Assembly (NCBI GenBank): GCA_017463365.1
Contig: JAFTPH010000028.1
Location: forward strand, 268-64,267
Source: Bacilli bacterium
GTDB taxonomy: Bacteria > Bacillota_I > Bacilli_A > ML615J-28 > CAG-313
DNA: 64,000 nucleotides
Direction: 5' to 3'
A program made the translations under genes and the position numbers. Below, one piece after another: positions 16,967 to 63,669 of the stretch. The notes beneath the pieces are model-generated. The model saw nothing but the letters and a program-made list of their open reading frames with translations. It made no database searches and was not told the origin of the DNA. Positions within the stretch are counted from its first letter, which is position 1; every line of letters begins with the position of its first letter.

Positions 16967-17045
16967 TTTACTAATTGATAATCTAACTACTTAATGTAGT
17001 TAGATTATCTTCTTATTAAAACGTAAAAATAATGGATGGTGACAT

Positions 17046-18581: not shown

Positions 18582-18582
18582 T

Positions 18583-31973: not shown

Positions 31974-31997
31974 AATTATAAAGAGGTGTTTAAAAAT

Positions 31998-38406: not shown

Positions 38407-38426
38407 TAAGTAGAGGTATATATATT

Positions 38427-39608
38427 ATGGCAGAAAAAACTGTTTATGAAAAAAGCTTAGAACTTCATGAAAAAGGTCCTGGTAAAATTGAAGTTTTATC
38501 AAAAGTAGTTGTTGAAAATAAAGATCAATTAGCACAAGCATATTCTCCAGGGGTTGCTGAACCTTGTCGTAAAATTGCTGCTAATCCTGCTGATGTTTAT
38601 AAATATACATCTAAAGGGAATTTAGTTGCGGTAGTATCAGATGGTACTGCAGTATTAGGACTTGGAGATATCGGACCACTTGGTGCGATGCCAGTTATGG
38701 AAGGTAAAGCAATTTTATTCAAGAATTTCGCAAACGTTGATGCTTTCCCTATTTGCTTAGATACTAAAGATACAGAAGAAATCATTGAAACAGTTAAGAG
38801 AATTGCTCCATGTTTTGGTGGTATCAACTTAGAAGATATTTCAGCTCCAAGATGTTTTGAAATTGAAGCTCGTTTAAAGAAAGAATTAGATATTCCAGTA
38901 TTCCATGATGACCAACATGGTACAGCTATCGTTGTATGTGCAGGTTTAATCAATGCATTAAAACTTGTTGGTAAGAAAATGGAAGATATTCATGTTGTTA
39001 TTAATGGTGCAGGTTCTGCAGGTATTTCAATTTGTAAATTAATTTTACAATTTGGAGTAAAAGATGTTGTATTAGTTGACCGTCAAGGTGCTTTATGCCC
39101 AGGTGAAGAATGGATGAATCCAGCTCAAGCAGCTATGGCTGAAATCACTAACCCTAATAAACAAAGAGGACCATTAACTGAAATTATTAAAGATAAAGAT
39201 GTATTCATCGGTGTTTCTGCACCTAACATCGTTACTGCTGAAATGGTTTCAACAATGGCAGATGACGCTATCGTATTTGCAATGGCTAACCCTACTCCAG
39301 AAATTATGCCTGATCTTGCAAAACAAGGTGGAGCAAGAATCGTTGCTACTGGAAGAAGTGACTTCCCTAACCAAATCAATAACGTTTTAGTATTCCCTGG
39401 TATTTTCCGTGGAGCATTAGATGCTAAAGCAACAGACATTACTGAAGAAATGAAACTTGCTGCATCAAGAGCAATCGCTTCTTTAGTTACTGATGAAGAA
39501 TTAAATGAAGAATACATTATTCCTTCTCCATTCGACAAACGTGTAGCTCCAGTTGTTGCAGCAGAAGTTGCAAGAGTTGCTAAAGAACAAGGAATTACAA
39601 AAGAGTAA
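38427..39608 (+). CDS. NAD(P)-dependent malic enzyme (oxaloacetate-decarboxylating malate dehydrogenase), short bacterial form
   Basis: LAQAYSPGVAEPC, NGAGSAGISI Rossmann, FAMANPTPE blocks. Confidence 0.8.
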   Translation: MAEKTVYEKSLELHEKGPGKIEVLSKVVVENKDQLAQAYSPGVAEPCRKIAANPADVYKYTSKGNLVAVVSDGTAVLGLGDIGPLGAMPVMEGKAILFKNFANVDAFPICLDTKDTEEIIETVKRIAPCFGGINLEDISAPRCFEIEARLKKELDIPVFHDDQHGTAIVVCAGLINALKLVGKKMEDIHVVINGAGSAGISICKLILQFGVKDVVLVDRQGALCPGEEWMNPAQAAMAEITNPNKQRGPLTEIIKDKDVFIGVSAPNIVTAEMVSTMADDAIVFAMANPTPEIMPDLAKQGGARIVATGRSDFPNQINNVLVFPGIFRGALDAKATDITEEMKLAASRAIASLVTDEELNEEYIIPSPFDKRVAPVVAAEVARVAKEQGITKE

Positions 39609-39666
39609 TAGAAATAATGTGCAATGAATAATTGCACATTTTCTTAAAAAAGAAAGAGGATAAATT

Positions 39667-40938
39667 ATGGCTAATTTAAAATTACCTTATTATAAAGGAC
39701 ATATTGATTGTAATATACCTGATGATTTAGTAGCAGCTGTTCTAACATCAAAAACTGAACACTATGTTCCAGAAAAGAGTGAATCAGATTTAGTTAGAGA
39801 TGCATTAGTTAATCCAATCGCATCTTTACCACTTTCTGAACTTGCGAAAGACAAAAAACATGTTGTGGTTATCTCTAGTGACCATACACGTCCTGTACCA
39901 AGTCATATTACAATGCCAATTATTTTAGAAGAAATTAGAAAATATAATAAAGATGTTAAAATCTCTATTCTAATTGCTACAGGAATGCACCGTGCTTCAA
40001 CTCATGAAGAATTAGTTAACAAATACGGAGAAAAGATTGTTAAAGAAGAAACAATTGTTATGCATGATGCGTATGTTGATGAAGATATGACTTTTAAAGG
40101 AATCTTACCATCTGGTGGAGAACTTTGGGTTAATAAACTTATTGACAGTGCGGATTTATTAATTTCTGAAGGATTTATTGAACCACATTTCTTTGCGGGA
40201 TTCAGTGGTGGAAGAAAATCGGTTTTACCTGGTATTGCATCTAAAAAGACAGTTTTATGGAATCATAATGCGAAATTTATTGCGAATAAAAATGCAAGAG
40301 CTGGTAACTTACAAGATAATCCAATTCACCAAGATATGCTTTTTGCAGCAAAAGCTGCTAACTTACAGTTCATTTTAAATGTTGTTATTAATGGTGAAAA
40401 GAAAGTAATTAAGGCTTTCGCAGGAGACTTAGAAGAAGCACATGCTCATGGATGTAAACTTGTTAAAGAAATTGCGCATGTTGATCCAGTTTATTCAGAT
40501 ATTGTTATTACAACTAATGGAGGATATCCGCTAGATCAAAATATCTATCAAACAGTTAAAGGGATGACAGCAGGAGAAGCGTGTGTAAATCCTGGAGGAG
40601 TAATCATTATTTGTTCATCATGTGCTGATGGAACAGGTGGAGAATTCTTCTATAAATTACTTGCTGATAACCCTTCTGCTGAAGTGGCTTATCAAAAACT
40701 AAATGATGTAGAACCAAGTGATACAGAGTTTGACCAATGGGAAGCACAAATTTTAGCTCGAATCTTATGTAAAGCTCATGTAATCATTGTATCTGAACAT
40801 TGTGACCCAGCAATCATTAAAGGTATGCATATTGATCATGCTTATACATTAGATGAAGCCCTTAATAAAGCAAGAGAATTAAAAGGTGCTGATAAAAAAA
40901 TTACTATTATTCCTGATGGAATTAGTGTAATATTCTAA
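39667..40938 (+). CDS. LarA-family (lactate racemase-like, DUF2088) protein
   Basis: 423 aa; FAGFSGGRKSVLPG lysine motif and overall LarA N/C-domain pattern; no larB/C/E nearby. Confidence 0.6.
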   Translation: MANLKLPYYKGHIDCNIPDDLVAAVLTSKTEHYVPEKSESDLVRDALVNPIASLPLSELAKDKKHVVVISSDHTRPVPSHITMPIILEEIRKYNKDVKISILIATGMHRASTHEELVNKYGEKIVKEETIVMHDAYVDEDMTFKGILPSGGELWVNKLIDSADLLISEGFIEPHFFAGFSGGRKSVLPGIASKKTVLWNHNAKFIANKNARAGNLQDNPIHQDMLFAAKAANLQFILNVVINGEKKVIKAFAGDLEEAHAHGCKLVKEIAHVDPVYSDIVITTNGGYPLDQNIYQTVKGMTAGEACVNPGGVIIICSSCADGTGGEFFYKLLADNPSAEVAYQKLNDVEPSDTEFDQWEAQILARILCKAHVIIVSEHCDPAIIKGMHIDHAYTLDEALNKARELKGADKKITIIPDGISVIF

Positions 40939-43282: not shown

Positions 43283-46200
43283 ATGAAGTTGTTAAAAAGA
43301 ATTTTTATTATATTAATGATATTAACAAGTATCTTATTAATTAAACCAATTAGTAAGGTAGAAGCGGAAAGTGAATCTACGGGAAGTGTTGGTTTACAAT
43401 ATACGCTTAATTCAGGTGGTGCATCATATGCTGTAACAGGTATAGGTACTTGTACTGATACAAACGTTGTTATCCCAAATGAATATAATGGGTTACCGGT
43501 TACTAGTATAGAAGCAAATGCTTTTAAACATTGTAAAGATATTATAACTGTGGAAATTCCTGAGAATATAGTTGAGATTGGTGACGATGCATTTTATAGT
43601 TGTCTAAAATTGAAAGATTTAATTATTGAAGGTAATAATAATTCAATGACTATTGGTAGTTATGCATTTTATTATTGTCGCGTTTTAAATAATGTTTACT
43701 TTAAAGGAACAGTAGAAGAATGGTGTAAAATTTCTTTCAAAGACAGTTATTCAAATCCGATGAATTATACTAGTAACTTTTATATGTTAAATGAAAAAGG
43801 AGAATATAAAAAAGTTACTAAATTAGAAATTCCTAGTACTGTTACAAGTATAGGAAACTATCAATTTGCTGGTTTATATGATTTAAGGGAAGTTATTATT
43901 CCGAATACTGTAACAAGTATAGGAGATAGTGCATTTGCTGGTTGTTATAGTTTAACAAGTATTGAAATTCCTGAAAGTATAACTAAAATTAGTGATTATG
44001 CATTTTCGAGTTGTTATATTTATAATTTGGTAAACAATAGTAATTTAGGAATTAGCATAGGTTCTAGTAATTATGGAAACATTGCACATTATACGATTAA
44101 ACTAACAAATAAAGATGGTAGTGTTAAACAAAAAAATGGGGTTATGGAATATATCGAAAAAGATGGTTTTGTATTTATCAAAGAAAAAGAAGTTTATAAA
44201 TTGATAAATTATGTAGGATCTGAAGAAACAGTAACTTTGCCACTTGATATAAACGGTAATAAATATACAATATTTCAAATGAGAGGTGTTAAAAACTTAA
44301 TAATACCTGAAGGATTTACGGAAATTAATGATTATGCGTTTTATGATTGTTCAACTTTAGAAAGTGTCAAAATTCCGACAAGTGTTACTAGAATTGGCAA
44401 TTATGCTTTTAATGGATGTAAAAATTTAACAGAATTATTTATACCAAATAGCGTTGAAAATCTTGGTTCATCTGCTTTTAGTTATTGTAATAACTTAAAT
44501 AAGGTGATATTTGAAGAAAACAGCAAAATCACTTATTTTTCAGATAGACTTTTTGAAGGGAGTAAAAATTTAATTGAAATATCAATTCCTAAAGGAGTTA
44601 CTGATATTTATGGTTTATACTCTTATTGTTTTTCTACTTGTTTCGGATTAGAATCTATTGAAATACCTAGTAGTGTAAAATATATAGGAGGTCAGGCGTT
44701 TAACTATTGTGTGAGTTTAACAAATGTATATTATCAAGGGACAATTGAAGATTGGTGTAATATCTATTTTGATTCAGGAATGTTCTCAACTCCAATGCAA
44801 TGGGCAACTCATTTTTACATGTTAGATGAAAATAATGATTATTATGAAGTTACAGAAATTTTTATTCCTGATACTATAAATAGAATAAAAAACTGTCAAT
44901 TTTATGGATTTACTAATTTAGAAAAAATATATATCCCAAAAAGTGTTACATATATAGGAGATGATGCGTTATATTTTGGTTCTAATTCAACAATATATTG
45001 TGAATCTAGTTCTAAACCAAGTGAATGGAGTACCAATTGGAATCGAAGAAATTATCCTGTTGTTTGGAATAGTTGCATGCATAGATCTTGTGAGTGGATT
45101 GTTGAGAGTGAACAATCTTGTACTGAAGCAGGTTATAAGTATAAAAAATGTTCTATATGTAATTTAATTGTAGAAGAAAATAATGCTCCCGCATTAGGCC
45201 ATAATTACAATGAAAATAATAAATGTACTAATTGTGGTGATGTTAAGATAAGCGAAGGTTTGGAATATAGATATGACAAAGAAACCAATACTTATTCTGT
45301 AAAAGGTATTGGAACATGTACTGATTCAGTAATTGTTATACCAAGTGTTTATAATGAATTACCAGTAACTGAAATTTTTGAATGTGCTTTTATGAATATG
45401 ACTAACATTAAAAAGGTTATTCTTCCAGAAACAATTACGCATATAAGTTTATGGGCTTTTGATAATTGTCAAGGTTTGGAAAGTATTGTTCTTCCTAAGA
45501 GCCTTGAAAATATATCTGATAGTGCTTTTAGAGATTGTTTAAATTTAAAAAATGTTTATTATAATGGAACAATTGAAGACTGGTGTAATATTGTCCTAGA
45601 AGATACTCCTATGAATAATGGGGAATTCTTCTATATGTTAAATGAAGAAGGAGAGTACTACGAAGTAACAGAAATAGTTATTCCAGATGGTATTACGAGT
45701 ATTGGACTTAATCAATTCTATTCATTTGATAATATTACGAAAGTAACAATTCCTAATGGGGTTACAGACATAAAAATAAATGCTTTTGCTAAGTGTAAAA
45801 ATTTAATTAGTGTTAATGTGCCAAATAGTGTTACATATCTTGGTGATTACGCATTCTCCGAATGTACAAGTTTAAAAAATATTGATCTACCTAATAGTAT
45901 AAAATCTATGGGCGCAAATGTTTTCTCTTTATCTACAAGTTTAGAACAAATTGAAATACCAACAGGCCTTGAAAAAATAACGATGGGAACTTTTGCTGGA
46001 TGCACAAGTTTGACTAGTGTCGTAATACCTGATAATATCTATAAAATTGGTACTGCTGCATTCTCAGGATGTACAGGACTTACTAATGTGGAAATCTCTG
46101 GCAAAACAGAAGAAATTGAAGATTCAGTTTTCCTTCAATGTACAAGTTTAGCAAAAATTGTTATCCCATTTAGTGTTAGAATTATCGGCAGATATGCTTT

Positions 46201-47875
46201 TTCTGAATGTGAAAATTTAACAATTTATTGTGAAGCCAAATCTAAACTAGTTGGATGGGATGAAAAATGGAATGCATCTAATTGTCCGGTTGTTTGGAGT
46301 TATTGTTTACATAACTTAAGTGATTGGACAATTGATTTAGAACCGACATGCGCATTAGTTGGTCACAAATATAAGACATGTACGAAATGTAATAATGTTG
46401 TCGAAGAAGCAGAAATTGAAAAGGTTGATCATAATTTTGATGAATTAAATAAATGTGAGGTTTGTGGGGATTATAAAGAACATGTTGGGTTAAATTATAC
46501 TATCAATGCATCATCTGATGGGTATATTTTAACTAGTCTTGGAACATGTACTGATACTGTAATTAATATTCCAAGTATGTATAATGGTTTACCAGTTGTC
46601 GAAATCGGTAATAATGCCTTTGAATATAGTTCAGTCACTCTAATTAATATTCCAAATAGTGTTGTTAAGATTGGCGATTATGTCTTCCATGCAAGTAAAA
46701 ATCTTGAACAAGTATTAGTTGATACTGAAAATGAATATTATGTTAGTGTTGATGGTATCTTATTTGATAAAGCAATTACAGAATTAATTGTTTATCCAGC
46801 TAAGAAAACAGGTAGTGAATATAATATTCCAAATACGGTAACTAATATTAAAGATTCCGCTTTTGCTTATAATGGACAATTAACTAAAATTACTATTCCT
46901 GAAAGTGTAAAGACGATTACTGATTATGCATTCTATAGATGTATATTATTAATTGAAATTATTATTCCAAATAGTGTTGAATCAATTGGTTCAAATGCAT
47001 TTGGTGAATGTCAAAATTTAGAAAAAATTACTTTTAAAGAAAACTCTAAAATAACAGAGATAGCTGATTGGTCTTTCTATAATTGTAAAAAATTAACAAG
47101 TTTTGAAATTCCAGAAAATGTTACTAAAATTGGAGTAAATGCGTTTGGAAATTGTAGCAGTTTAATCGAAATTATAATTGTAATAAAAATTACAATCATT
47201 AAGAATAATGCATTCTCAAACTGTAAAAATCTTAAAATTTTATGTGAAGCAGAAATGCAACCGAGTGGTTTCGAAAGTAACTGGAATAAGAGTGGTTGTG
47301 AAACAGTTTGGGGTTATTGTGAGCATATAATAAGTGATTGGATTATTGATAAAAAAGCAACATGTAAGGAACAAGGACATAAATATCAAGAATGTACAAA
47401 ATGTCATGATGTATTAAATGAAGAAAAAATTTCGATTTTAGATCATACTTATGATCAATATGTTGTAGCTGATAAATATTTAGCTAGTAAAGCTGATTGT
47501 TTAAATAAAGCTAAGTATTACTTTAGTTGTGTATGTGGTGAAAAGGGAACTACAACATTTAATTACGGTGAACTTGGAGAGCATAACTATGTTGATAGAA
47601 AATGTACAGTATGTAATATCGACGAATATACATTAGGTGATGTAGACAATAATGGAAATATCAGTACAAGTGATGTAACATATTTACTATATCATTTAAT
47701 GTTTGGTGAGGCAATGTATCCTGTAAATCAACCAGTTGATTACAATAATGATGGATTAACAAATACAAATGATGTAATCTATTTGTTATATCATATAATG
47801 TTTGGAGAAACACAATATCCATTATATCTTCCTAAAACTAATTCATTTGAAATAAAAGATGAGGAAGAAGAATAA
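43283..47875 (+). CDS. Giant secreted BspA-type LRR protein built of three super-repeats, each ending in a Cys-rich knot, with C-terminal dockerin-like module
   Basis: signal peptide ...KPISKVEA/ESE; three modules starting GLQYTLNSGG (43390), GLEYRYDKET (45254), GLNYTINASS (46486) each with GTCTD; Cys-rich blocks about 45060-45250, 46285-46480, 47305-47600. Confidence 0.75.
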   Translation: MKLLKRIFIILMILTSILLIKPISKVEAESESTGSVGLQYTLNSGGASYAVTGIGTCTDTNVVIPNEYNGLPVTSIEANAFKHCKDIITVEIPENIVEIGDDAFYSCLKLKDLIIEGNNNSMTIGSYAFYYCRVLNNVYFKGTVEEWCKISFKDSYSNPMNYTSNFYMLNEKGEYKKVTKLEIPSTVTSIGNYQFAGLYDLREVIIPNTVTSIGDSAFAGCYSLTSIEIPESITKISDYAFSSCYIYNLVNNSNLGISIGSSNYGNIAHYTIKLTNKDGSVKQKNGVMEYIEKDGFVFIKEKEVYKLINYVGSEETVTLPLDINGNKYTIFQMRGVKNLIIPEGFTEINDYAFYDCSTLESVKIPTSVTRIGNYAFNGCKNLTELFIPNSVENLGSSAFSYCNNLNKVIFEENSKITYFSDRLFEGSKNLIEISIPKGVTDIYGLYSYCFSTCFGLESIEIPSSVKYIGGQAFNYCVSLTNVYYQGTIEDWCNIYFDSGMFSTPMQWATHFYMLDENNDYYEVTEIFIPDTINRIKNCQFYGFTNLEKIYIPKSVTYIGDDALYFGSNSTIYCESSSKPSEWSTNWNRRNYPVVWNSCMHRSCEWIVESEQSCTEAGYKYKKCSICNLIVEENNAPALGHNYNENNKCTNCGDVKISEGLEYRYDKETNTYSVKGIGTCTDSVIVIPSVYNELPVTEIFECAFMNMTNIKKVILPETITHISLWAFDNCQGLESIVLPKSLENISDSAFRDCLNLKNVYYNGTIEDWCNIVLEDTPMNNGEFFYMLNEEGEYYEVTEIVIPDGITSIGLNQFYSFDNITKVTIPNGVTDIKINAFAKCKNLISVNVPNSVTYLGDYAFSECTSLKNIDLPNSIKSMGANVFSLSTSLEQIEIPTGLEKITMGTFAGCTSLTSVVIPDNIYKIGTAAFSGCTGLTNVEISGKTEEIEDSVFLQCTSLAKIVIPFSVRIIGRYAFSECENLTIYCEAKSKLVGWDEKWNASNCPVVWSYCLHNLSDWTIDLEPTCALVGHKYKTCTKCNNVVEEAEIEKVDHNFDELNKCEVCGDYKEHVGLNYTINASSDGYILTSLGTCTDTVINIPSMYNGLPVVEIGNNAFEYSSVTLINIPNSVVKIGDYVFHASKNLEQVLVDTENEYYVSVDGILFDKAITELIVYPAKKTGSEYNIPNTVTNIKDSAFAYNGQLTKITIPESVKTITDYAFYRCILLIEIIIPNSVESIGSNAFGECQNLEKITFKENSKITEIADWSFYNCKKLTSFEIPENVTKIGVNAFGNCSSLIEIIIVIKITIIKNNAFSNCKNLKILCEAEMQPSGFESNWNKSGCETVWGYCEHIISDWIIDKKATCKEQGHKYQECTKCHDVLNEEKISILDHTYDQYVVADKYLASKADCLNKAKYYFSCVCGEKGTTTFNYGELGEHNYVDRKCTVCNIDEYTLGDVDNNGNISTSDVTYLLYHLMFGEAMYPVNQPVDYNNDGLTNTNDVIYLLYHIMFGETQYPLYLPKTNSFEIKDEEEE
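47633..47872 (+). other. C-terminal dockerin-like module of the 1530-aa protein (DVDNNGNISTSD...YLLYHLMFG..YPV / DYNNDGLTNTND...YLLYHIMFG..YPLY)
   Basis: two EF-hand-like 12-residue loops with D/N at 1,3,5,9,12 each followed by helix. Confidence 0.6.
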
Positions 47876-48156: not shown

Positions 48157-51100
48157 ATGAAAAAAGTATTAAAAGTTTTTATTTGTATGTTTATGATATC
48201 TTTAGGATTTTTAATTTCAGAGGTCATTTTAAAAGTAAATGCTGAAACAGTTGATATCAAAGGAGTGGAGTATACCTTTGAGTTAAGTGAGGATGGTACT
48301 TATTATATTATGACAGATGTTGATATTGATTCATCTTTAGGTTCAATAACAATTCCATCTAAGTATAATGGTCTTCCAATTAAGGAAATAAAAGGAGATG
48401 CTAAATTTTCTAATTGGAATATAAAAAGCTATTATTTTGAAGGAACATTTACCGATTGGTGTAATATTTCCTTTGAAAATGCAGGTAATAATCCATGTTT
48501 TCATTCTGGTGATATCTATATGTTAAACAAAACAGGGGATTATGAGTTATTAACCGAAATAAATATACCTGATGGTACCACAAAGATTAGTAAATATCAA
48601 TTTTGTGGTTTTTATGATAATTTAAATAAAATTATCCTTCCTAAAAGTTTAAAAAGTATAGGGGAGTCGGCTTTTAATGGGTTAGGTAAATGTGATGTTT
48701 ACTATCAAGGAACAATTGAAGATTGGTTAAAAATTGATTTTTCTAATGCATCAGCTAATCCATTATATTCATCTGGTTATAGATTATATGTTAAAAATAG
48801 TTTAAATGAATATCATATTGTGACAGATATTACAATACCAAGTGATATAACAGAGGTGTCAGTTGTTAATTTTATTGGTCTAAATGATGTAGTAAATTTA
48901 ACAATTCCCAAAAGTGTTGTAAAATTTGAAAAAAATTTTGGTTATGAACTTGATGAGTTAAAAAATGTTTATTATGAGGGAACAATTGAAGATTGGTGTA
49001 ATATTACTTTTGAAGATAATAGTAATCCTATGGGTTATGGAGATAACTTTTATTTAAAAACAGGTTCTTATTATTATAAACCAACCGATTTAGTTATTCC
49101 AAATACAGTTAAAATAATTAATCAATATCAATTTTATGGTTTTTCACAAATAGAAAAGATAACTATTTCTAGTGGTGTAACCGAAATAAAGCAATATGCG
49201 TTTACTAATTGTACAAAAGTAAAAGAAATAAGTCTTCCAAATACTTTAACAATGGTTGGGAGAAGTGCATTTTATGATTGTGATAATTTATCTATGTTAG
49301 TATTCCCTGAAGGGGTAAAAACAATTGATAGTAATGCTTTTGGAAATTGTACAAAATTAAAAACCGTTTATTTACCAAGTACTCTTGAAAAAATTGATAA
49401 CTCTTATGTTCCAGCCACAACGCTATATTATAATGGAACAGTTGACAAATGGTTAGAAGTAGATGATCGAATAACTGGTAGTTATGTAAAAGAGTTATAT
49501 TGTTTAGATAGTAAAGGGGTTTATCAATCAACTAGTAATTTAGTAATTCCGGAGGGAGTAACTTCAATTAAAGCTAGCGCATTTGATTATTGTCAATGGA
49601 TTAAAACTGTTACTCTTCCAAGTAGCTTAGTTTCAATTGATAAAAATGCTTTCTATGAGTCTTCATTTATTACAGATGTATATTATGAAGGAACAATTGA
49701 TGATTGGTTTAATTTAACAATTGATGTTGGTGGTAATCCTGTAGAATGGGCCGACAATATCCATTTTAAAGATGAAAATGGAGAATATCAAAAAGTAGTT
49801 AATCTAGTAATTCCTGAGGGAATAACAGAAATAAAAGGTCCAGGAGTATCATATTTTTATAATTTAAAAAGTATTACATTGCCGAAGAGTTTGAAAAAAA
49901 TTGATGGAAAGGTGTTTTTATACTGTAGTAATTTAGAAACAGTATATTATAATGGAACAATTGAAGATTGGTGCGCCATCGAATTAGGAATAACACCAAT
50001 GGGTTTTGCCGAAGAGTTTTATTTTCTTAATAATGGTACATATGAAAAAGTAACTGAAATTGAAATACCGGAATCGGTAAAAAATATTGGTAAATATCAA
50101 TTTTATGGTTTTTATGATGTTAAATGTGTTACAATTTCAAGTAATGTAGAAAGTATTGGTGAAAAAGCCTTTGCTTATATGACGGATCTTGTAAAAGTGG
50201 TATTCAAAAAAAATAATAATTCCGTTAAGATTGATTCTTATGCTTTTGCTTCTCAAAATTTAATTGATGTTTATTATGATGGTACAATAGAAGATTGGTG
50301 TAAAATAGAATTTGATGATTATTATTCAAATCCGCTATATTATGCTAAGTATTTTTTTATGAAAGATCAAATGAATGAATATTATGAAGTAACAGAATTG
50401 GAAATTCCAAAAACAGTAACGAATATTGGTGATTATCAATTCTATGGATTTGATTACTTAAAGAAAGTCACTATTCCAAGTGGAATAACAAGTATTGATG
50501 ATGGTGCTTTCTGTAATAGTGGAAATTTAAGAGAAATTATTTTTGAAGATGTAAATTCCTTGGAATATTTAAGTGAAAGTGCTTTTTATAATTGTAATAA
50601 ATTGGAAAATGTTTATATTAATAAATATAGTGAAAAATGGGCATCTTTAATTGGCTTTACTTATTTAAATAGTTCAACAATAAATGTTTATTTTAAAAAC
50701 GATCAAGGAGAATACATAACTAAAAATGAAATTATTATTCCTAACGGAGTAGAAGAGATTAAAGAAAGAGAATTTGCTAATGCGGAAAAATTAGAAAAAA
50801 TTGTAATTTCAAATAGTGTTAAGAAGATTTCAAAAGGAGCCTTCTATAATAATATTTCTTTGAAAGATGTTTATTATAATGGCACAATAGAAGAATGGTG
50901 TAATATTACATTTGAAGATTACATGGCTAATCCAATGTCTTATGCTGAACACTTTTATATGTTAAATGATAATAATGAATATTATGAAGTAACAGAAATA
51001 GTAATCCCAGATACGATAACTTCTATAAAAGAATGCATATTCTTTGGATTTAATAATGTAACAAAAGTTGTAATTCCAAACAATATTACTAGCATTGAAA

Positions 51101-54100
51101 AAAATGCATTCACAGGATGTACATCGCTAATTGATATAGAGATACCAAATAGTATTAAAAGTATTGGTAATTATGCTTTTTCAGGATGTACTAGCTTAAT
51201 AAGTATTGTTTTACCGAACAGCCTTGAGGCTATTGGTGAGTTTGCATTTAGTAGTTGTACTAATTTAAAAAATATTGAATTCCAACAAGGAACATTGTTA
51301 AAAATATTAGAAAGAGGTATTTTTAATAGTTGTGCTTTAGAAAAAATAGAAATTCCAAGCTCTATTGAAAAAATTGCTAATGGCGCATTTAGAAATTGCT
51401 CTTCACTTAAAGAAATAATTTTTAGCGAAGATGGTAGTTTGCTTAGTATAGATTCTTATGCATTTGAAGGATTAACATCTTTAGAAAAAATTGTTTTACC
51501 TAAAACAATTGAAGAACTAGGTGGATATATTTTTTCTGAGTGTACAAGTTTGAAAGAAATATATATATCAAACAACATTACAGATGTTAAATCAAGTTTT
51601 GATGATTGTGAAGATCTTGAAAAAGTATATTTTGATGGTGATATAACAGACTGGATTAAAATAAATTACAATGATTTTTGGGATGTATATAAGGGGGAAT
51701 TTGAATTATATCTTCCAAATGAAGAAGGAGTTTATGAATTAGTTACTGATTTGGTTATACCAGAAGGTATACAAATATTGGTTAATGGATCGCTAATTAA
51801 CAATTTAAAAAATATAAATAGTGTTACTATTCCAAAAGGAATGGTAGTAGAAAAAGCTATTTTTGGTACTACAAAAACAATAAATTCACTTTACTATAAT
51901 GGTACAGTTAGGGATTGGTTATTAAATAATACGCGTGAAAATTATTACGGAAGTTTAGAAAAGATTGAACATATCTATTTTAAAGATTTAACTGGAAATT
52001 ATTATGAAGTAACTGAGTTAGTAATTCCATCAGGAATTGAAAAAATATCATATCGAGCATTTTATGGTATGAAAAACTTGAAAAAAGTTGTAATATCTAG
52101 TAGTGTTACTTCAATTGAACCTTACGCTTTCTGTTATTGTACAAATCTTGAAGAGGTAGTTTTTGAAGAAAATAGTAGTTTAAAGAATCTTGCCGGATAT
52201 GCGTTTAGAGAATGTACAAATCTGAGAAATATTGTTTTACCTGATAGTTTAGAGAATATTAATTGGGAAGCTTTTCAACAATGTAGTTCGCTTTATTATA
52301 TTAATATTCCTCAAAATCTAAAAAATGTTAGTAATAGTTATACATATGGAGTTCAGTTAAAAGGAATATATAATCCATACAATGTGTCTACTGATATTCT
52401 TGGAGATATTGTAAATTATTTAACAGTTGTTTGTAATAGAAAAGTATCTGATTTTATAGTAGTAGATGAAGATGGTTATGTATTTATTAATGATGGATAC
52501 CAATATGTACTAATTGATTACCTTGGTGAAGGTGGTGAAATAACCTTACCATCGTTTGTTAAAGGGCAAACTTATTATGTTAAAAGTAGTGTCTTCAAAG
52601 GAAGAGAAGATATTACGAAAGTTGTGCTTCCAAAAACAGTTACAAAGTACGGATATTTATTGTTTGAAAGATGCGCTAATTTGAAGGAAGTGGTAATTCC
52701 TAAGACATTAAAAGAAATTCCAGAAGGCATGTTCTATGGTTGTAAATCATTAGAAAGTGTTGTTATTTCTGAAGATAGTATGTTAGAAATAATTGGTGAT
52801 GATGCATTCTGGGGTTGTGAAAATCTAAGAGAGTTTGTTTTACCGAAAAATTTAAAAGAAATTGGAGTTGCTGCTTTTAGTGATTGTAATAAGTTGCGGG
52901 TAATATATAATTTCTCAACGTATGAGGTAAAAATAGGAGCATCATTCCAAGCAGGTTATTTAAGTCATTATGTTGATGTTATTTGTACATCATATAATGA
53001 TGAAGGATACATGGAAACCGATGATGGATTTGTATTCTTAAAATTAGATGGTGAATATATTTTAATTGATTACCGTGGAACTAGTACAGAAGTATCATTG
53101 CCAAGAGATTTTAGAGGTAATTCATATAAAATTGAAAAGCCAATTTTATCAGGAAATCAAGCGATTGAAACAGTTTATATTCCAAATACTATTACGGAAT
53201 TAAATCATGCATTCTTCGAAAATTGTGCAAATCTAAAAAAGATAGTTTTTGAAACAGGAAGTAGCATTACTAAATTTGGTAGTTACACTTTCATAAATTG
53301 TAAAAGTTTGAAAGAGGTAATATTACCGGAAGGATTAATTGATTTAGGCGAATATACTTTCCAAGGTTGTCAAAGTTTAGAAACAATTGATTTACCAGAA
53401 AGTCTAGAAATCATTAGAACATCGGCATTTTATAATTGTACTAGTTTAAAAGAAATTATAATTCCTAATAACGTTAATACTATGTATGTATATGTTTTCA
53501 GTGAATGTACAAGTTTAGAAAAAGTTAAATTACCAGATAATCTAAAAGACATTAATTACAGTTTATTCAGAAACTGTTCAAGTTTAACAAATATTGAACT
53601 TCCAAATGGTTTAGAAGAAATAGATGATTATGCTTTCTCTGGATGTACAGGCTTAAAATCAATAGTTATTCCTAATACGGTTACAAGTTTAGGAATGGAA
53701 TGCTTTAAAGATTGTACAAATTTAGAGTATGTTAATATGTCGGATGGTCTTACAGAAGGAGCTCAAGCATTATTTTCAGGATGTACAAGTCTTGTAGAAA
53801 TTGTTTTCCCACAAAATATTGAATATATTTCTGGATCAATGTTTAGGGGATGTACAAGTTTAACAGAAATCATTCTTCCTAGTACTGTTACATCAATTGG
53901 TTGGAATGCTTTTTCGGGATGTACAAATTTATCAAATGTTGTAATCTCTCAAAATGTTAAAACTATTGGTGAAAAAGCATTTATTAATTGTACAAATTTA
54001 AATAGTATTGTAATTCCTAATTCAGTTAAAGTAATAAATAATTTAGGAATTACTGATAAGGATTCAATAAATTTATATTACGATGGAACATTAGAAGAAT

Positions 54101-54864
54101 GGTTTAAAGTAGATGTTGAAGCTCAACTAATTGATAGTTTCAATGTAAATCATCATTTCTATATCAAAAATGAAAATAACGAATATATTGAATTATTAGA
54201 ATTAATACTTCCAAATGGTATTGAAGCACTTAAGAAAAATAATTTATCAGTATTTAAGAATGTTAATAAATTGGTTATTTCAAAGGATGTAAAGGCGTTT
54301 TCAGCAAGTACACTGGATGTATTACCAAATCTTAAAGAATTAGAAGTTGTTGAAGATAATGAATATATCACAATGGTAGATGGTAATCTATATACAAAAA
54401 ATTTATCTGAATTAATTAGATATTTTGATAAAGAAGATGTTAAAACCTTCGTAATTCCAGAAGAAGTTAGAGAGATTGAAAGTTATGCCTTTAAAGGTAA
54501 TCAATATTTAGAAGAAATTACTATTCAGCATAAAGTGTATTATATAAATAGTAATGCTTTTGAAAAAGATAATAATATTTTATTTAAAGTATACCGAGAT
54601 ACATATGCATTTGATAGAGTAAAGGATCTAAAATTTAGATATGAATTTATTAAGTCTTCTGATGAAATTGGTGATATTGATGGAAGTTTAGGAATTACTA
54701 TTAATGATGCGGTATATATGTTATATCACACAATGTTTGGTCAAAAATCATATCCAGTAAATCAAAGATTAGATTTTAATGATGACGGAACACCAGATGT
54801 AAATGATGCAGTATATATGTTATATAATGTATTGTTTGGAGAAGAACAATATCCATTATATTAA
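48157..54864 (+). CDS. Giant (2235 aa) secreted BspA-type LRR protein with about 12-15 copies of a YYNGTIEDWCNIxFED..NPM..FYML unit and C-terminal dockerin-like module
   Basis: N-terminal hydrophobic leader; repeated unit seen at protein and DNA level; C-terminal DIDGSLGITIND...YMLYHTMFG / DFNDDGTPDVND...YMLYNVLFG. Confidence 0.75.
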   Translation: MKKVLKVFICMFMISLGFLISEVILKVNAETVDIKGVEYTFELSEDGTYYIMTDVDIDSSLGSITIPSKYNGLPIKEIKGDAKFSNWNIKSYYFEGTFTDWCNISFENAGNNPCFHSGDIYMLNKTGDYELLTEINIPDGTTKISKYQFCGFYDNLNKIILPKSLKSIGESAFNGLGKCDVYYQGTIEDWLKIDFSNASANPLYSSGYRLYVKNSLNEYHIVTDITIPSDITEVSVVNFIGLNDVVNLTIPKSVVKFEKNFGYELDELKNVYYEGTIEDWCNITFEDNSNPMGYGDNFYLKTGSYYYKPTDLVIPNTVKIINQYQFYGFSQIEKITISSGVTEIKQYAFTNCTKVKEISLPNTLTMVGRSAFYDCDNLSMLVFPEGVKTIDSNAFGNCTKLKTVYLPSTLEKIDNSYVPATTLYYNGTVDKWLEVDDRITGSYVKELYCLDSKGVYQSTSNLVIPEGVTSIKASAFDYCQWIKTVTLPSSLVSIDKNAFYESSFITDVYYEGTIDDWFNLTIDVGGNPVEWADNIHFKDENGEYQKVVNLVIPEGITEIKGPGVSYFYNLKSITLPKSLKKIDGKVFLYCSNLETVYYNGTIEDWCAIELGITPMGFAEEFYFLNNGTYEKVTEIEIPESVKNIGKYQFYGFYDVKCVTISSNVESIGEKAFAYMTDLVKVVFKKNNNSVKIDSYAFASQNLIDVYYDGTIEDWCKIEFDDYYSNPLYYAKYFFMKDQMNEYYEVTELEIPKTVTNIGDYQFYGFDYLKKVTIPSGITSIDDGAFCNSGNLREIIFEDVNSLEYLSESAFYNCNKLENVYINKYSEKWASLIGFTYLNSSTINVYFKNDQGEYITKNEIIIPNGVEEIKEREFANAEKLEKIVISNSVKKISKGAFYNNISLKDVYYNGTIEEWCNITFEDYMANPMSYAEHFYMLNDNNEYYEVTEIVIPDTITSIKECIFFGFNNVTKVVIPNNITSIEKNAFTGCTSLIDIEIPNSIKSIGNYAFSGCTSLISIVLPNSLEAIGEFAFSSCTNLKNIEFQQGTLLKILERGIFNSCALEKIEIPSSIEKIANGAFRNCSSLKEIIFSEDGSLLSIDSYAFEGLTSLEKIVLPKTIEELGGYIFSECTSLKEIYISNNITDVKSSFDDCEDLEKVYFDGDITDWIKINYNDFWDVYKGEFELYLPNEEGVYELVTDLVIPEGIQILVNGSLINNLKNINSVTIPKGMVVEKAIFGTTKTINSLYYNGTVRDWLLNNTRENYYGSLEKIEHIYFKDLTGNYYEVTELVIPSGIEKISYRAFYGMKNLKKVVISSSVTSIEPYAFCYCTNLEEVVFEENSSLKNLAGYAFRECTNLRNIVLPDSLENINWEAFQQCSSLYYINIPQNLKNVSNSYTYGVQLKGIYNPYNVSTDILGDIVNYLTVVCNRKVSDFIVVDEDGYVFINDGYQYVLIDYLGEGGEITLPSFVKGQTYYVKSSVFKGREDITKVVLPKTVTKYGYLLFERCANLKEVVIPKTLKEIPEGMFYGCKSLESVVISEDSMLEIIGDDAFWGCENLREFVLPKNLKEIGVAAFSDCNKLRVIYNFSTYEVKIGASFQAGYLSHYVDVICTSYNDEGYMETDDGFVFLKLDGEYILIDYRGTSTEVSLPRDFRGNSYKIEKPILSGNQAIETVYIPNTITELNHAFFENCANLKKIVFETGSSITKFGSYTFINCKSLKEVILPEGLIDLGEYTFQGCQSLETIDLPESLEIIRTSAFYNCTSLKEIIIPNNVNTMYVYVFSECTSLEKVKLPDNLKDINYSLFRNCSSLTNIELPNGLEEIDDYAFSGCTGLKSIVIPNTVTSLGMECFKDCTNLEYVNMSDGLTEGAQALFSGCTSLVEIVFPQNIEYISGSMFRGCTSLTEIILPSTVTSIGWNAFSGCTNLSNVVISQNVKTIGEKAFINCTNLNSIVIPNSVKVINNLGITDKDSINLYYDGTLEEWFKVDVEAQLIDSFNVNHHFYIKNENNEYIELLELILPNGIEALKKNNLSVFKNVNKLVISKDVKAFSASTLDVLPNLKELEVVEDNEYITMVDGNLYTKNLSELIRYFDKEDVKTFVIPEEVREIESYAFKGNQYLEEITIQHKVYYINSNAFEKDNNILFKVYRDTYAFDRVKDLKFRYEFIKSSDEIGDIDGSLGITINDAVYMLYHTMFGQKSYPVNQRLDFNDDGTPDVNDAVYMLYNVLFGEEQYPLY
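54654..54861 (+). other. C-terminal dockerin-like module of the 2235-aa protein
   Basis: as above. Confidence 0.6.
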
Positions 54865-57053: not shown

Positions 57054-57695
57054 ATGAATTTTGAAATAAGCAATAATATGATTATAAAATATATCGGATC
57101 TGATTCAAGTTTTATAATACCAAATACTTATAATGTTGATGGTATTGAAACAGATATTTTAATGTTGAAAGATTCAATTTTTAAATGTTGTCGAAAAATA
57201 GAAAATATTGTCATCTCGGAAGGAATTCAAATTATTGAAAAAGAAGCATTTTCGAATTGTGGAAATTTAATAACAATTACAATTCCTGAAAGTATTAAAA
57301 TAATTGGGAAAAGAGCTTTTTATGGATGCTCAAATTTGAATATGATTACAATTCCTAAAAATGTTGAAATTATCGAAGAGAGAACATTTAGTTTTTGTCA
57401 TAAATTAAAAGTAGTAAATTTCGCTGAAAATAGTCGTTTATTTAAAATAAGTTCGTCAGCTTTTAGATGCTGCGATAATTTAGAAGAAATAATACTCCCT
57501 AAGACGCTAGAAAGTATAGAAAGCAATGCTTTTTCTTATTGTGAAAAATTATTAAAAATTGTTATTCCTCCAAGTGTAACATTAATAAAAGAAGATGTAT
57601 TTTTAGAATCTAATAAAGTAACGCTTTATGTAACAAAAGGAACATATGCTGAAGAATATGCGAAAAAATATAATTTAAAACACGTATTACAATAA
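57054..57695 (+). CDS. Small BspA-type LRR protein without signal peptide
   Basis: 213 aa; 6-7 LRR_5 units; strong RBS GAAGGAGGAAGG. Confidence 0.6.
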   Translation: MNFEISNNMIIKYIGSDSSFIIPNTYNVDGIETDILMLKDSIFKCCRKIENIVISEGIQIIEKEAFSNCGNLITITIPESIKIIGKRAFYGCSNLNMITIPKNVEIIEERTFSFCHKLKVVNFAENSRLFKISSSAFRCCDNLEEIILPKTLESIESNAFSYCEKLLKIVIPPSVTLIKEDVFLESNKVTLYVTKGTYAEEYAKKYNLKHVLQ

Positions 57696-57734: not shown

Positions 57735-58343
57735 ATGAAAAATTTAGTATTAGAATTAAAAAATAAATTACAAGAGAAAAATAAAGATTTAAATATTTTA
57801 GGAAGCGAATTAATGAGCCTCTTTAATATAACTGAAGGTGATCTTTATGATGAATGGGTAAAAATTGGATATGATGTAAAACTTTACGATAATGTTTGGA
57901 TTGAAAGTCCGACAAAATATGCGGGAAAAGTAAAAAAAGAATTTTTCTTAGATGAAGAAGTTTATTGGTACAAAAAAGCCGATGATGAAATGCCAGTACA
58001 TGAAATGTCTGATTTTAATGTTATTTTTGATGACTGTGAAGTGTTTACAGGTAGTGTTTATCGTGATGGGCCATTTGAATCATATTCAGCAACTTTAATT
58101 GAAATGGTTGATGTCTTAAAAGAAATTATTGTAGATGAACCAATTAAATTATCTGTTGTTTATTTAGCAGAGTGCTTATTGTTGCTTGAAGTGAATAAAG
58201 AAAAAGAAGTTAATGTTCATTTTGAAATTAGTGAATTTAAAGATCTAAGTAAAGAAGATAAAAACTTGTTATTATATCAACTAATTGTTTTATCGTATGA
58301 TAAACCGCTTATTGATACTTTAAAATTATTAAAATTGTGTTAA
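57735..58343 (+). CDS. Acidic cytoplasmic hypothetical protein (candidate RNase immunity protein)
   Basis: 202 aa, D/E-rich, no TM/signal; immediately upstream of the barnase-like lipoprotein. Confidence 0.4.
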   Translation: MKNLVLELKNKLQEKNKDLNILGSELMSLFNITEGDLYDEWVKIGYDVKLYDNVWIESPTKYAGKVKKEFFLDEEVYWYKKADDEMPVHEMSDFNVIFDDCEVFTGSVYRDGPFESYSATLIEMVDVLKEIIVDEPIKLSVVYLAECLLLLEVNKEKEVNVHFEISEFKDLSKEDKNLLLYQLIVLSYDKPLIDTLKLLKLC

Positions 58344-58357
58344 TTATAATAATAGTT

Positions 58358-58392
58358 GAAACGGTAATAGATTTATTACCGTTTTTAATATT
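58358..58392 (+). terminator. Rho-independent terminator (aaacggtaat/attaccgttt + T-run)
   Basis: 10-bp perfect stem, 6-nt loop. Confidence 0.7.
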
Positions 58393-58488
58393 TAAGATAG
58401 TATTTAAAATTAAATATGTCATTTGGTTTTAAATATTGGAGATTTTTGGTATAATATATGAAGATATATTAGAAAGAGGGTAATACTT

Positions 58489-59931
58489 TTGAAAAATAGT
58501 AGAAAAGTACTAATATTTTTATTATTAATATTTATATTTGTGCTATCAGGATGTTTTGTTGATAATGGATATATTGATATAACAAATGGTGACTATCAAA
58601 TTATTAATGTTGGAGAAGTAATTCAATTAGATATTGACAAAAGCGAAGATTTAACTGGCGATATTAAGTGGTTAATTGAAGGAGATAGTGTAACTATTAG
58701 TGTTGATGGTATGGTTACCGGAATTAAAGAAGGAATATCAACTATTACGGTAAATCTTGATGGTGAAACTGATATGATTACTTTTGAAGTAAAAGCCTCT
58801 GAAGAAATAGATATTACTTTAATAACTCCAAGTAATAATTTAGAAATTGGTAGTAGTTTATCAGTAGAAGCAATTTTAAGCAATGAAGAATTCCTTGATG
58901 AGGTAAGTTATTACATTGTGAGTGGAACAGAATATGCTAGTTTAGAGGGGGATGTATTAACTGGTATTAGTGAAGGTAAAGTAGTTATTGAATCTAAAGT
59001 ATTTGGAACTACTAGTAATCAAGTTACTATTTTTGTGGAAGCAATTTTAACAGACCCTTATGAAGGAATGTCAAAAGAAGAATTCTATGCTAATTATACT
59101 GAAGCAACAAGTTATATGGATGCATATTACCGTTCTTTACATGGATTTATGTCTGGATCAATTGCTGAACAAGATCAAGAACCAACGCTTGCTGAAGAAC
59201 GTCCAATGGAAGACGGGAAGTATTTAAAAAATAGTAATTGTTATTATTCTGAAGATGGAAATACTTATTTAGTTGTTGATGAGACAGGTAAAGTTGTAGA
59301 TATGGTATTCAAAGGTGGTGGGTATGTTACATTAGAAGATGTAGCCGCATACGTATTTGCTTTTGGTGATGTTCCAGCAAACTATAACCCAAGTAAAAAA
59401 GCTAAACCAACAAGTAGTATTTGGAAAGAATATTTGCGGGTAAATAATACCCAATTTAGTGGAAGTACCTCTAAATATCCATATGAACCTGAACTTCCAA
59501 ATATCAGTGGCTGTGGTGGAGATTTAAAATACTATGAAATTGACTTAGGAACAACTGGAACTGATTGTGATCCTAAATATCCAGCAATCCCGTATAATAA
59601 TGGTCAAAGTATTGAACGAGGAGCCGCTCGTATTGTATATAGCAGATATGACCAAAATGGTAATCAAATTATTGATATTAATGAAAAATATGTTTTCTAT
59701 ACTTATAATCACTATAATGATTTCCAAGAATATCTAAACTATGTTGGTGGTTGGGGAGAAATGTTTGGAAATGTCACAGGTGGTGGAACTTTATCTAGCA
59801 AAAAAGATTATAATCCAACTCCATATGTTGATATTATCTTAAAAGATTTCACTAAAGATTTAAAGATAAATAAAAATAATTTAAGCATCCCTGTTGTTTA
59901 CAAAAAAGAAGAGGAATTAGCTTTATTTTAA
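58489..59931 (+). CDS. Surface lipoprotein with Big_2 Ig-like domains and C-terminal barnase-family (RNase N1/T1/barnase) ribonuclease domain (TTG start)
   Basis: lipobox VLSGC. C-terminal blocks align to barnase: DVAAYVFAFGDVPANYNPSKKAKPTSSIW (barnase GVADYLQTYHKLPDNYITKSEAQALGW), GGDL...E (general acid), RGAARIVYS (RNSDRILYS) and YTYNHYNDFQEY (YKTTDHYQTFTKI). Confidence 0.65.
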   Translation: MKNSRKVLIFLLLIFIFVLSGCFVDNGYIDITNGDYQIINVGEVIQLDIDKSEDLTGDIKWLIEGDSVTISVDGMVTGIKEGISTITVNLDGETDMITFEVKASEEIDITLITPSNNLEIGSSLSVEAILSNEEFLDEVSYYIVSGTEYASLEGDVLTGISEGKVVIESKVFGTTSNQVTIFVEAILTDPYEGMSKEEFYANYTEATSYMDAYYRSLHGFMSGSIAEQDQEPTLAEERPMEDGKYLKNSNCYYSEDGNTYLVVDETGKVVDMVFKGGGYVTLEDVAAYVFAFGDVPANYNPSKKAKPTSSIWKEYLRVNNTQFSGSTSKYPYEPELPNISGCGGDLKYYEIDLGTTGTDCDPKYPAIPYNNGQSIERGAARIVYSRYDQNGNQIIDINEKYVFYTYNHYNDFQEYLNYVGGWGEMFGNVTGGGTLSSKKDYNPTPYVDIILKDFTKDLKINKNNLSIPVVYKKEEELALF

Positions 59932-62527: not shown

Positions 62528-62557
62528 GAAACTCAAAGATTTCTTTGAGTTTTCTTT
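62528..62557 (+). terminator. Rho-independent terminator (aaactcaaaga/tctttgagttt)
   Basis: 11-bp perfect stem, 2-nt loop, T-rich tail. Confidence 0.7.
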
Positions 62558-62577: not shown

Positions 62578-63669
62578 ATGGAAAAATTTGAAATTGTGAA
62601 ATACACAAACGAATTAAAAATAAAAATCGTATCAATTGAAAAAGTAATAAAACCAGCTTCTCTAAAAGAAGAAATTAGTAGTTTAGAAGCCCAAATGTCA
62701 AAAAGTGATTTCTGGGATGATGCTGCTAATGCGACAAAAACGATTAATAAAAGTAATGAATGTAAAGAAACACTAGCATCTTTTGAGGAATTAAATAATT
62801 ACTATGAAGAACTTCAAATGATGTTAGAATTAGATGATGAAGAATTATATCAAGATGCGGATAATTTAATCAAAAAAATTGATCAAGCTATGCATAGTTT
62901 TGAAGAGAAACTATTGTTAAATGGAGAATATGATTCTAATAATGCCATTATTGAATTACATCCAGGAGCTGGTGGAACTGAATCTCAAGATTGGACCCTA
63001 ATGCTTTACCGAATGTATAAACGCTTCTCTGAAAGAAGAGGTTTTGTTTTTGAACTTCTAGATTATCAAGAAGCAATAGATGCGGGTATTAAAAGCGTTT
63101 CATTCTTAATTAAAGGTTCTAATGCATATGGTATTTTAAAATCAGAACATGGAGTTCACCGTTTAGTTAGAATTTCACCATTTGATTCTAACGCTAGACG
63201 TCATACGAGTTTTTCAGCGTGTCATGTAACACCGGAAATAGATGATAATATTGATATTGAAATAAATGAAAATGATTTAAGAATTGATACTTACCGTTCA
63301 AGTGGAGCAGGTGGACAACATGTAAACAAAACTGATTCGGCAGTACGAATTACCCATTTACCTACAGGAATTGTTGTATCTTGTCAAAATCAACGAAGCC
63401 AAATTCAAAACCGGGAAAAGGCGATGCAAGTTTTGAAAACTAAACTTTACTTATTAGAAGAAGCTTCTCGTAAAGCAAAAATTTCGGGAATTAGTGGGAA
63501 TAATAGTGACAATGCGTTTGGAAGTCAAATTAGAAGCTATGTTTTACATCCTTACGCAATGGTTAAAGATCATCGAACAAATGTTGAATCATCGAATCCC
63601 AATAATGTATTAGATGGTGATTTAGATATTTTTATTGATGCATATTTAAAATATAATGCGTCAAAATAA
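62578..63669 (+). CDS. prfB: Peptide chain release factor 2 (single continuous ORF, no programmed +1 frameshift)
   Basis: SPF tripeptide (ISPFDSNARRHTSF) and GGQ motif (SGAGGQHVNKT); 363 aa uninterrupted. Confidence 0.9.
   Translation: MEKFEIVKYTNELKIKIVSIEKVIKPASLKEEISSLEAQMSKSDFWDDAANATKTINKSNECKETLASFEELNNYYEELQMMLELDDEELYQDADNLIKKIDQAMHSFEEKLLLNGEYDSNNAIIELHPGAGGTESQDWTLMLYRMYKRFSERRGFVFELLDYQEAIDAGIKSVSFLIKGSNAYGILKSEHGVHRLVRISPFDSNARRHTSFSACHVTPEIDDNIDIEINENDLRIDTYRSSGAGGQHVNKTDSAVRITHLPTGIVVSCQNQRSQIQNREKAMQVLKTKLYLLEEASRKAKISGISGNNSDNAFGSQIRSYVLHPYAMVKDHRTNVESSNPNNVLDGDLDIFIDAYLKYNASK

Follow-up and report, generated by a model that had tools for sequence, protein, structure and literature searches.

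A divergent barnase-fold family of predicted surface lipoproteins in uncultured gut bacteria

The subject of this study is one gene in a 64-kb stretch of DNA from an uncultured Bacilli bacterium (assembly GCA_017463365.1, contig JAFTPH010000028.1, positions 268 to 64,267; hereafter the window), whose guanine-plus-cytosine (GC) content lies between 25 and 34%. A previous reading of the letters alone (the sequence-only reading) had placed here a lipoprotein with Big_2 immunoglobulin (Ig)-like domains and a barnase-family ribonuclease (RNase) domain. The gene is a complete open reading frame (ORF) with exactly the boundaries given in that reading, and its product is 100% identical to MBQ8292521.1, filed as 'hypothetical protein IJX78_01790' of an uncultured Bacilli bacterium metagenome-assembled genome (MAG). 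We find that it belongs to an enlarged, lipoprotein-tethered and unannotated barnase clade that is very divergent from classical barnase. The parts of the gene are listed below; residue counts refer to 273 family sequences down to about 44% identity, and barnase equivalences were taken from the hhalign alignment.

58489 to 59931, + strand: complete ORF, 480 aa, TTG start
58489 to 58554, + strand: type-II (lipoprotein) signal peptide, residues 1-22, with lipobox LSGC; codon of Cys22, the predicted lipidation site, at 58552-58554
58570 to 58791, + strand: Ig-like (Big_2-type) domain 1, residues ~28-101 (Pfam, family profile)
58792 to 59043, + strand: Ig-like (Big_2-type) domain 2, residues ~102-185 (Pfam, family profile)
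59044 to 59853, + strand: conserved, putatively catalytic module, residues 186-455, modelled as a single compact unit
59044 to 59310, + strand: residues 186-274, elaboration on the N-terminal side of the module, modelled as two helices and three strands; no relative found
59311 to 59748, + strand: barnase-fold core, residues 275-420 (model with Foldseek, core profile, hhalign)
59485 to 59487, + strand: E333, aligned with E60 of barnase, the Glu that contacts guanine; conserved as Glu in 262 of 270 relatives
59536 to 59538, + strand: E350, equivalent of barnase E73 (general base); 265 of 265
59617 to 59619, + strand: R377, equivalent of barnase R83; 266 of 266
59629 to 59631, + strand: R381, equivalent of barnase R87; 265 of 266
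59710 to 59715, + strand: H408-Y409, equivalents of barnase H102 (general acid) and Y103; 263 of 265 and 265 of 265
59749 to 59853, + strand: C-terminal elaboration of the module, residues 421-455, GGWGxxFGNxTGGG...YNPTPY, Gly-rich and conserved (alignment, model)
59854 to 59928, + strand: variable tail, residues 456-480, with a predicted local distance difference test score (pLDDT) below 50 (model, alignment)

The N-terminus of the protein, MKNSRKVLIFLLLIFIFVLSGC, has a positively charged n-region, a hydrophobic core and the lipobox L19-S20-G21-C22, and is that of a predicted lipoprotein. The window protein matches the lipobox pattern [LVI][ASTVI][GAS]C; a lipobox was found in at least 225 of the 273 relatives, and most of the others are truncated or carry looser lipoboxes. 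Behind it, Big_2 (PF02368) matched the window protein alone with E 0.0066 and 16.8 bits, below the 22.8-bit cut-off. At the family level the assignment is clear: Big_2 was matched by 40 of 46 relatives tested (best E 1.1e-20), and the family profile searched against the PDB found two tandem Ig domains in a Hoc-like protein (PDB entry 7x30, E 3e-14). The number of Ig domains, the linkers and the N-terminal length vary among relatives. Apart from sub-threshold PF00545, Pfam detected only Ig-type domains in the relatives, and no LXG, RHS, WXG or other trafficking domain. The lipobox and the Ig-like domains of the sequence-only reading are thus borne out.

By sequence, the RNase domain remained below threshold. 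PF00545 matched residues 336-414 of the window protein (profile positions 46-96 of 98) with E 0.0042 and 18 bits, short of the Pfam gathering score of 24, and all 46 relatives tested were likewise matched sub-threshold (E 7.7e-4 to 0.1). In hhalign, for which the barnase, binase and RNase Sa references were sequences entered by hand, module positions 96-228 aligned with barnase 6-107 (E 0.012). A family profile including the Ig domains and the module retrieved Ig-domain proteins only from the PDB and no barnase, so that a core-trimmed profile was needed; its top matches among 177,635 distinct PDB sequences were 28 barnase and binase entries (E 0.024-0.75).

Prediction of residues 275-420 with AlphaFold2 gave a model with pLDDT 84 and a predicted template modelling score (pTM) of 0.81. 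Foldseek of this model against the PDB yielded 34 matches, all of them barnase or binase (probability 1.00, E 2.5e-4 to 4e-3, target-normalised template modelling scores of 0.60-0.68), and the next match followed only at E ~2. The alignment behind the prediction contained no classical barnase. The order of secondary structure elements in the core is one helix followed by five strands, as in barnase, with family-specific insertions between strands 2 and 3, between strands 3 and 4 and in the base-recognition loop. We conclude from the model that residues 275-420 have a barnase fold; the predicted structure settles a question that sequence alone leaves sub-threshold. The structural comparison therefore upholds the barnase-family assignment, with changes of detail. 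The domain had been placed in the C-terminal ~150 aa; it is present, but its core spans about residues 275-420, lies inside the module of residues 186-455 and is followed, after the module, by a 25-aa tail. As to the proposed likeness to RNase Sa, neither RNase Sa nor T1 was among the 34 significant fold matches.

The catalytic residues of barnase have counterparts throughout the family. E350, R377, R381 and H408, whose absence would have spoken against the RNase assignment, are present and near-invariant in the 273 relatives, and D352, the equivalent of barnase D75, is found in 265 of 265. The F-S-G motif of the guanine-recognition loop (barnase F56-S57-N58-R59-E60) is kept. Two details of the sequence-only reading need correction. 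Its 'GGD' block (GCGGDLKYYEID) aligns with barnase G65-R69 (GKSGR) and not with G52-G53-D54. The catalytic Glu (E350) was correctly picked out but described as the acid, whereas in barnase this residue is the general base.

Of the 270 conserved residues of the module, only ~145 belong to the barnase core. The flanks (residues 186-274 and 421-455) are equally conserved, and these ~125 residues had no Pfam, NCBIfam or PDB sequence match. Over residues 186-455, all 120 homologues among the matches listed are 62-75% identical. The module (59044-59853) is acidic, with 39 D+E against 22 K+R, and Tyr-rich (30 of 270 residues, 11%). An AlphaFold model of 295 aa covering the module was predicted with pLDDT 86.6 and pTM 0.86; with this whole-module model, Foldseek returned no PDB relative (best E 0.7) and no match among viral structures. 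Because the isolated core retrieved barnase where the whole module drew a blank, the whole-module negative says nothing about the core.

The family comprises more than 2,555 proteins at E <= 1e-3; 339 cluster representatives (50% identity) match among 1.84 billion proteins, and a one-genome-per-species collection contains 506 matching stretches. Nearly all of the best 80 of these 506 stretches are labelled as gut MAGs (goat, sheep, yak, cattle, deer, human), under the names Bacilli, Clostridia, Eubacteriales, Oscillospiraceae, Lachnospiraceae, Acholeplasmatales and 'Coprobacillus sp. CAG:698', and no cultured organism is among these 80. Ten members were checked for their annotation, and only the window protein had a source name, 'hypothetical protein'. 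No paper on a lipoprotein-anchored barnase was found in the literature.

In genomes that range from 25 to 58% GC, the identity of the module to that of the window protein stays between 62 and 74%; over all pairs, the median is 68% and the minimum 54%. Over the same range, the GC content of the gene follows that of its flanks (r = 0.96), which indicates long-resident genes rather than recent transfers. Within syntenic groups, the module is 79% identical where Tdk/Xth reach 92-93%, 68% where SurE is at 57%, and 67% where the neighbouring lipoproteins are at 34%. By these sequence comparisons, the catalytic module is under strong purifying selection of a housekeeping-like kind, with a variable N-terminal stalk.

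Gene neighbourhoods in relatives point to nucleic-acid turnover. About 13 higher-GC relatives carry a co-directional trio consisting of an SNase (PF00565, 37 bits) lipoprotein, a large OB-fold (PF01336) lipoprotein and the barnase-like lipoprotein, followed by a convergent SurE gene, two DHH/DHHA1 genes and a thymidine kinase gene (Tdk). Example loci are:

L014, 1068 to 6804: trio of SNase, OB-fold and barnase-like lipoproteins
L022, L023, L061, L065, L070, L073 and L080: the same trio

Taken with SurE, DHH and thymidine kinase, the trio has the look of a gene cluster for degrading nucleic acids at the cell surface. A second arrangement in higher-GC relatives has, in this order, a thymidine kinase gene, an oppositely oriented exonuclease III gene, the RNase gene and an M32 carboxypeptidase gene; DHH-DHH-SurE often follows at a distance of a few kb. 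SurE and DHH/DHHA1 genes are near the RNase gene in 20-24 loci and thymidine kinase in 17. Compared with one another, the SNase and OB-fold neighbours share only 34-49% identity, which shows that the linkage has outlasted considerable divergence.

In the window itself, the surroundings of the gene are as follows:

58358 to 58385, + strand: terminator-like hairpin closing the upstream gene, 12-bp stem plus T-run
58428 to 58455, + strand: promoter-like site, TTTAAA, 16 nt, TG-TATAAT (TGnTATAAT); consensus match only
58473 to 58480, + strand: ribosome-binding site AAAGAGGG, 8 nt upstream of the TTG start codon, as seen in the sequence itself
15854 to 20954, + strand: BMP/PnrA-type ABC importer operon (lipoprotein, ATPase, two permeases)

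The upstream hairpin implies that the RNase gene forms its own transcription unit. Promoter-like sites occur in this AT-rich region at chance frequency (17 found, 18 expected). The start of secA lies 65 nt downstream of the RNase gene, with no terminator between them, and the secA-prfB synteny is confined to the closest relatives (3 of 81 loci). Scans of the whole window with Rfam at the gathering threshold and for tRNA genes returned no family and no tRNA gene, and accordingly no riboswitch upstream of the RNase gene. PADLOC defence models gave no match and an NCBIfam search nothing relevant.

Upstream of the hairpin lies an ORF of 202 aa (57735-58343) whose product is acidic, without signal peptide and near-orphan, with no Pfam or PDB match. 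It was considered as an immunity protein and rejected, and it is not a partner of the family: it is absent from all 81 related loci, only nine homologues were found in 5.8 billion proteins, none of them beside RNase genes in other contigs, and the terminator-like hairpin separates it from the RNase gene.

Taken together, we propose that the protein is a lipid-anchored surface endoribonuclease, most likely engaged in the extracellular breakdown of RNA for nucleotide salvage, and give this reading a probability of about 0.6. After Sec export and lipidation of Cys22, the protein would be held on the outer face of the membrane with the two Ig-like domains as a stalk. The barnase-fold core inside the 270-aa C-terminal module would then cleave RNA without a metal ion, E350 acting as the general base and H408 as the general acid. 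R377, R381 and probably K303 would stabilise the transition state, with both arginines binding phosphate. The expected product ends are 2',3'-cyclic phosphate and subsequently 3'-phosphate. In this way RNA in the gut would be degraded outside the cell and its nucleotides and nucleosides salvaged, a route that other surface nucleases, nucleotidases and nucleoside importers, such as a BMP-type ABC system, could complete.

Salvage, which the sequence-only reading had already offered as one of two roles, is favoured on sequence grounds by the conserved module on a variable stalk and by the SNase, OB-fold, SurE, DHH and Tdk neighbours in relatives. The context in the window is supportive as well, with other hydrolases on repeat-domain stalks (GDPD, GDSL lipase) and the PnrA-type importer, a possible downstream uptake route. 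There are precedents: barnase-type secreted RNases of Bacillus are induced by phosphate starvation (PMC5021464), and membrane nucleases of Mycoplasma supply nucleotide precursors (PMC12115388).

A number of observations weigh against this proposal. We infer enzymatic activity, base preference, surface exposure and the nutritional role, and endoribonuclease activity in particular is predicted from the fold of a model and from residue conservation. Identity to barnase is only 17-20%, and the PF00545 score leaves the protein below the HMM (hidden Markov model) threshold for membership. K303 is the probable equivalent of K27 but is one position off in hhalign, and the position is Lys in 232 (87%) and Arg in 10 of ~267 sequences. 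The base-recognition loop is altered by a 6-residue insertion and has Tyr at the R59 position. Because of these changes, the guanyl specificity claimed in the sequence-only reading is not established, although the equivalent of E60 is conserved. The 125 conserved residues outside the core, which have no solved relative, could change or gate activity. The neighbourhood associations rest on subsets of genomes that are related to each other and do not amount to independent observations, and the SNase, OB-fold, SurE, DHH and Tdk partners are all absent from the window. The link to a BMP nucleoside importer, suggested previously, is likewise not established: a PnrA-like ABC operon is indeed present, but it lies 37 kb from the RNase gene and is not a conserved neighbour. 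Finally, searches for a nearby inhibitor gene came up empty both in the window and within 6 kb of the gene in 81 loci, which bears on how the producer would tolerate the enzyme.

The same structural evidence would fit an active surface RNase with a purpose other than nutrition, such as the destruction of host regulatory or immunostimulatory RNAs (tRNA, miRNA), the remodelling of an RNA-containing matrix or the degradation of phage RNA. Nearly all genomes in which the family occurs are host-associated gut genomes, cleavage of host tRNAs has been reported for a mycoplasma membrane nuclease (PMC12848938), and the unexplained conserved flanks could give substrate selectivity. The SurE, DHH and Tdk genes and the SNase and OB-fold lipoproteins point to bulk nucleic-acid turnover instead. 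We consider a non-nutritional function unlikely, while noting that an action on host RNAs, for example, cannot be separated from scavenging with these data. Somewhat speculative, and to be held with little confidence, is the idea that the family represents a self-sufficient form of barnase, in which the flanks gate the active site until export or select particular RNAs (host tRNAs, small RNAs). Gating by the flanks would then replace the barstar that classical barnases need.

The other role named in the sequence-only reading, a contact-delivered toxin, appears distinctly improbable. It is well established that barnase-type domains serve as toxin modules (PMC3482391), the window protein has kept its full catalytic set and surface display would permit contact with other cells, so that a displayed or released RNase could in principle be directed against competing bacteria or host cells, comparable to Tox-Barnase or the cytotoxic binase. 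Such toxins typically have an adjacent barstar-type immunity gene and are polymorphic at the C-terminus (Zhang et al. 2012, PMC3482391). Here, tblastn and phmmer searches with a single barstar sequence entered by hand detected no barstar-like sequence in the 64-kb window or within 6 kb around the gene in the 81 related loci, and no conserved small ORF adjoins the gene across 72 loci. The inhibitor gene is unlinked in most bacilli (PMC5021464), and its absence nearby is therefore not proof that there is none. The near-orphan 202-aa ORF has no homologue beside RNase genes elsewhere, and neither a translocation domain nor one of the trafficking domains searched for is apparent. The gene is present in one copy per locus without cassettes. 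Moreover, it is the C-terminal module that is conserved and the N-terminus that varies, the reverse of the pattern in polymorphic toxins (PMC3482391). It is the missing adjacent immunity gene and the RNase module being the most conserved part that lead us to disfavour a toxin.

We regard it as very unlikely that the core has been re-purposed to bind RNA, nucleotides or another ligand, or to catalyse a different phosphotransfer reaction. The 125 extra conserved residues that wrap the core, the acidic and Tyr-rich composition of the module, so unlike the basic barnase, the remodelled base-recognition loop and the sub-threshold Pfam match would all agree with such a change. Yet every catalytic residue is kept across 273 sequences, which is hard to explain for a non-catalytic binder, and an acidic composition is compatible with catalysis, since RNase Sa is acidic and fully active.

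The closest known counterparts are barnase of Bacillus amyloliquefaciens and binase of B. pumilus, two guanyl-preferring enzymes of the PF00545 N1/T1 family that are secreted. They share the alpha+beta fold and are the sole significant PDB matches, agree with the window protein in the motif V-A-x-Y...P-x-N-Y of the N-terminal helix and in the catalytic Glu, Arg, Arg and His-Tyr, and are exported by Firmicutes as well. In contrast to these free 110-aa enzymes, the window protein is predicted to be lipid-anchored behind Ig domains, and its core, which has insertions, is part of a 270-aa module that adds another 125 conserved residues. The module is acidic where barnase and binase are basic, and no barstar was detected nearby. 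With Tox-Barnase/Imm-Barstar systems, the protein shares a barnase-clade RNase domain at the C-terminal end of a larger exported protein. It differs in having secA instead of an immunity gene directly downstream, in lacking trafficking or pre-toxin domains and cassette polymorphism, and in its conserved RNase module and variable N-terminus.

The membrane nucleases of Mollicutes (MnuA, SNase-type lipoproteins), which are reduced-genome, host-associated bacteria derived from Firmicutes, resemble the window protein in their lipoprotein anchoring and in their proposed role in providing nucleotide precursors (PMC12115388, PMC11729948). They have SNase and EEP folds, are metal-dependent and sugar-non-specific, and a review of mycoplasma nucleases mentions no barnase-type enzyme (PMC12115388). 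The window protein may thus be analogous to them in role, and not in fold.

A further parallel is YhcR of Bacillus subtilis, a multidomain nuclease anchored to the wall by sortase, with OB-fold, SNase and 5'-nucleotidase domains. Both would degrade nucleic acids while retained at the surface, and the SNase and OB-fold elements of YhcR recur as neighbouring lipoproteins in some relatives of the window protein. YhcR is not known to have a barnase domain and uses a sortase anchor, and functions that are fused in YhcR are split over several lipoproteins here.

Barnase is among the best-studied enzymes, yet this family of more than 2,555 proteins escapes standard annotation. If the protein is active, a conserved surface protein of uncultured bacteria that abound in the gut would have a function, and the set of surface nucleases known from Mollicutes would gain an RNA-specific arm. 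If flank-controlled, self-sufficient barnases are indeed at hand, the pool of extracellular RNA in the gut would be shaped by a conserved surface RNase that many uncultured Firmicutes there carry. The family is also a natural test of how a barnase-type RNase is produced without an evident inhibitor gene nearby, and the 125 unexplained conserved residues, together with the strongly conserved extracellular module, are targets for structural and biochemical work.

Two other proteins encoded in the window have the same 'enzyme on a stalk' design as the RNase. An exported GDPD phosphodiesterase bears both Ig-like and Flg_new repeats (2563-4851), and a lipoprotein of the GDSL lipase type bears Flg_new repeats (11604-12962). 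Four BspA-type leucine-rich-repeat proteins are encoded at 31986-34073, 43283-47875, 48157-54864 and 57054-57695, among them giants of 1530 and 2235 aa. The BspA-type protein just upstream of the RNase gene region (213 aa) has no signal peptide and may be a fragment. The prfB gene (release factor 2, 62578-63669) is a single uninterrupted ORF of 363 aa, apparently without the programmed +1 frameshift that is common among bacteria; the intergenic spacer contains a CTTTGA at 62543. We also noted a protein combining Schlafen AlbA_2, HATPase_c_4 and winged-helix domains (828-2288), and clustered genes for an Ldh_2-family dehydrogenase, a malic enzyme and a lactate racemase of the LarA type (37285-40938). 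Cumulative GC skew rises over the whole window and most ORFs of at least 90 aa are on the + strand, which suggests that the window belongs to a single replichore.

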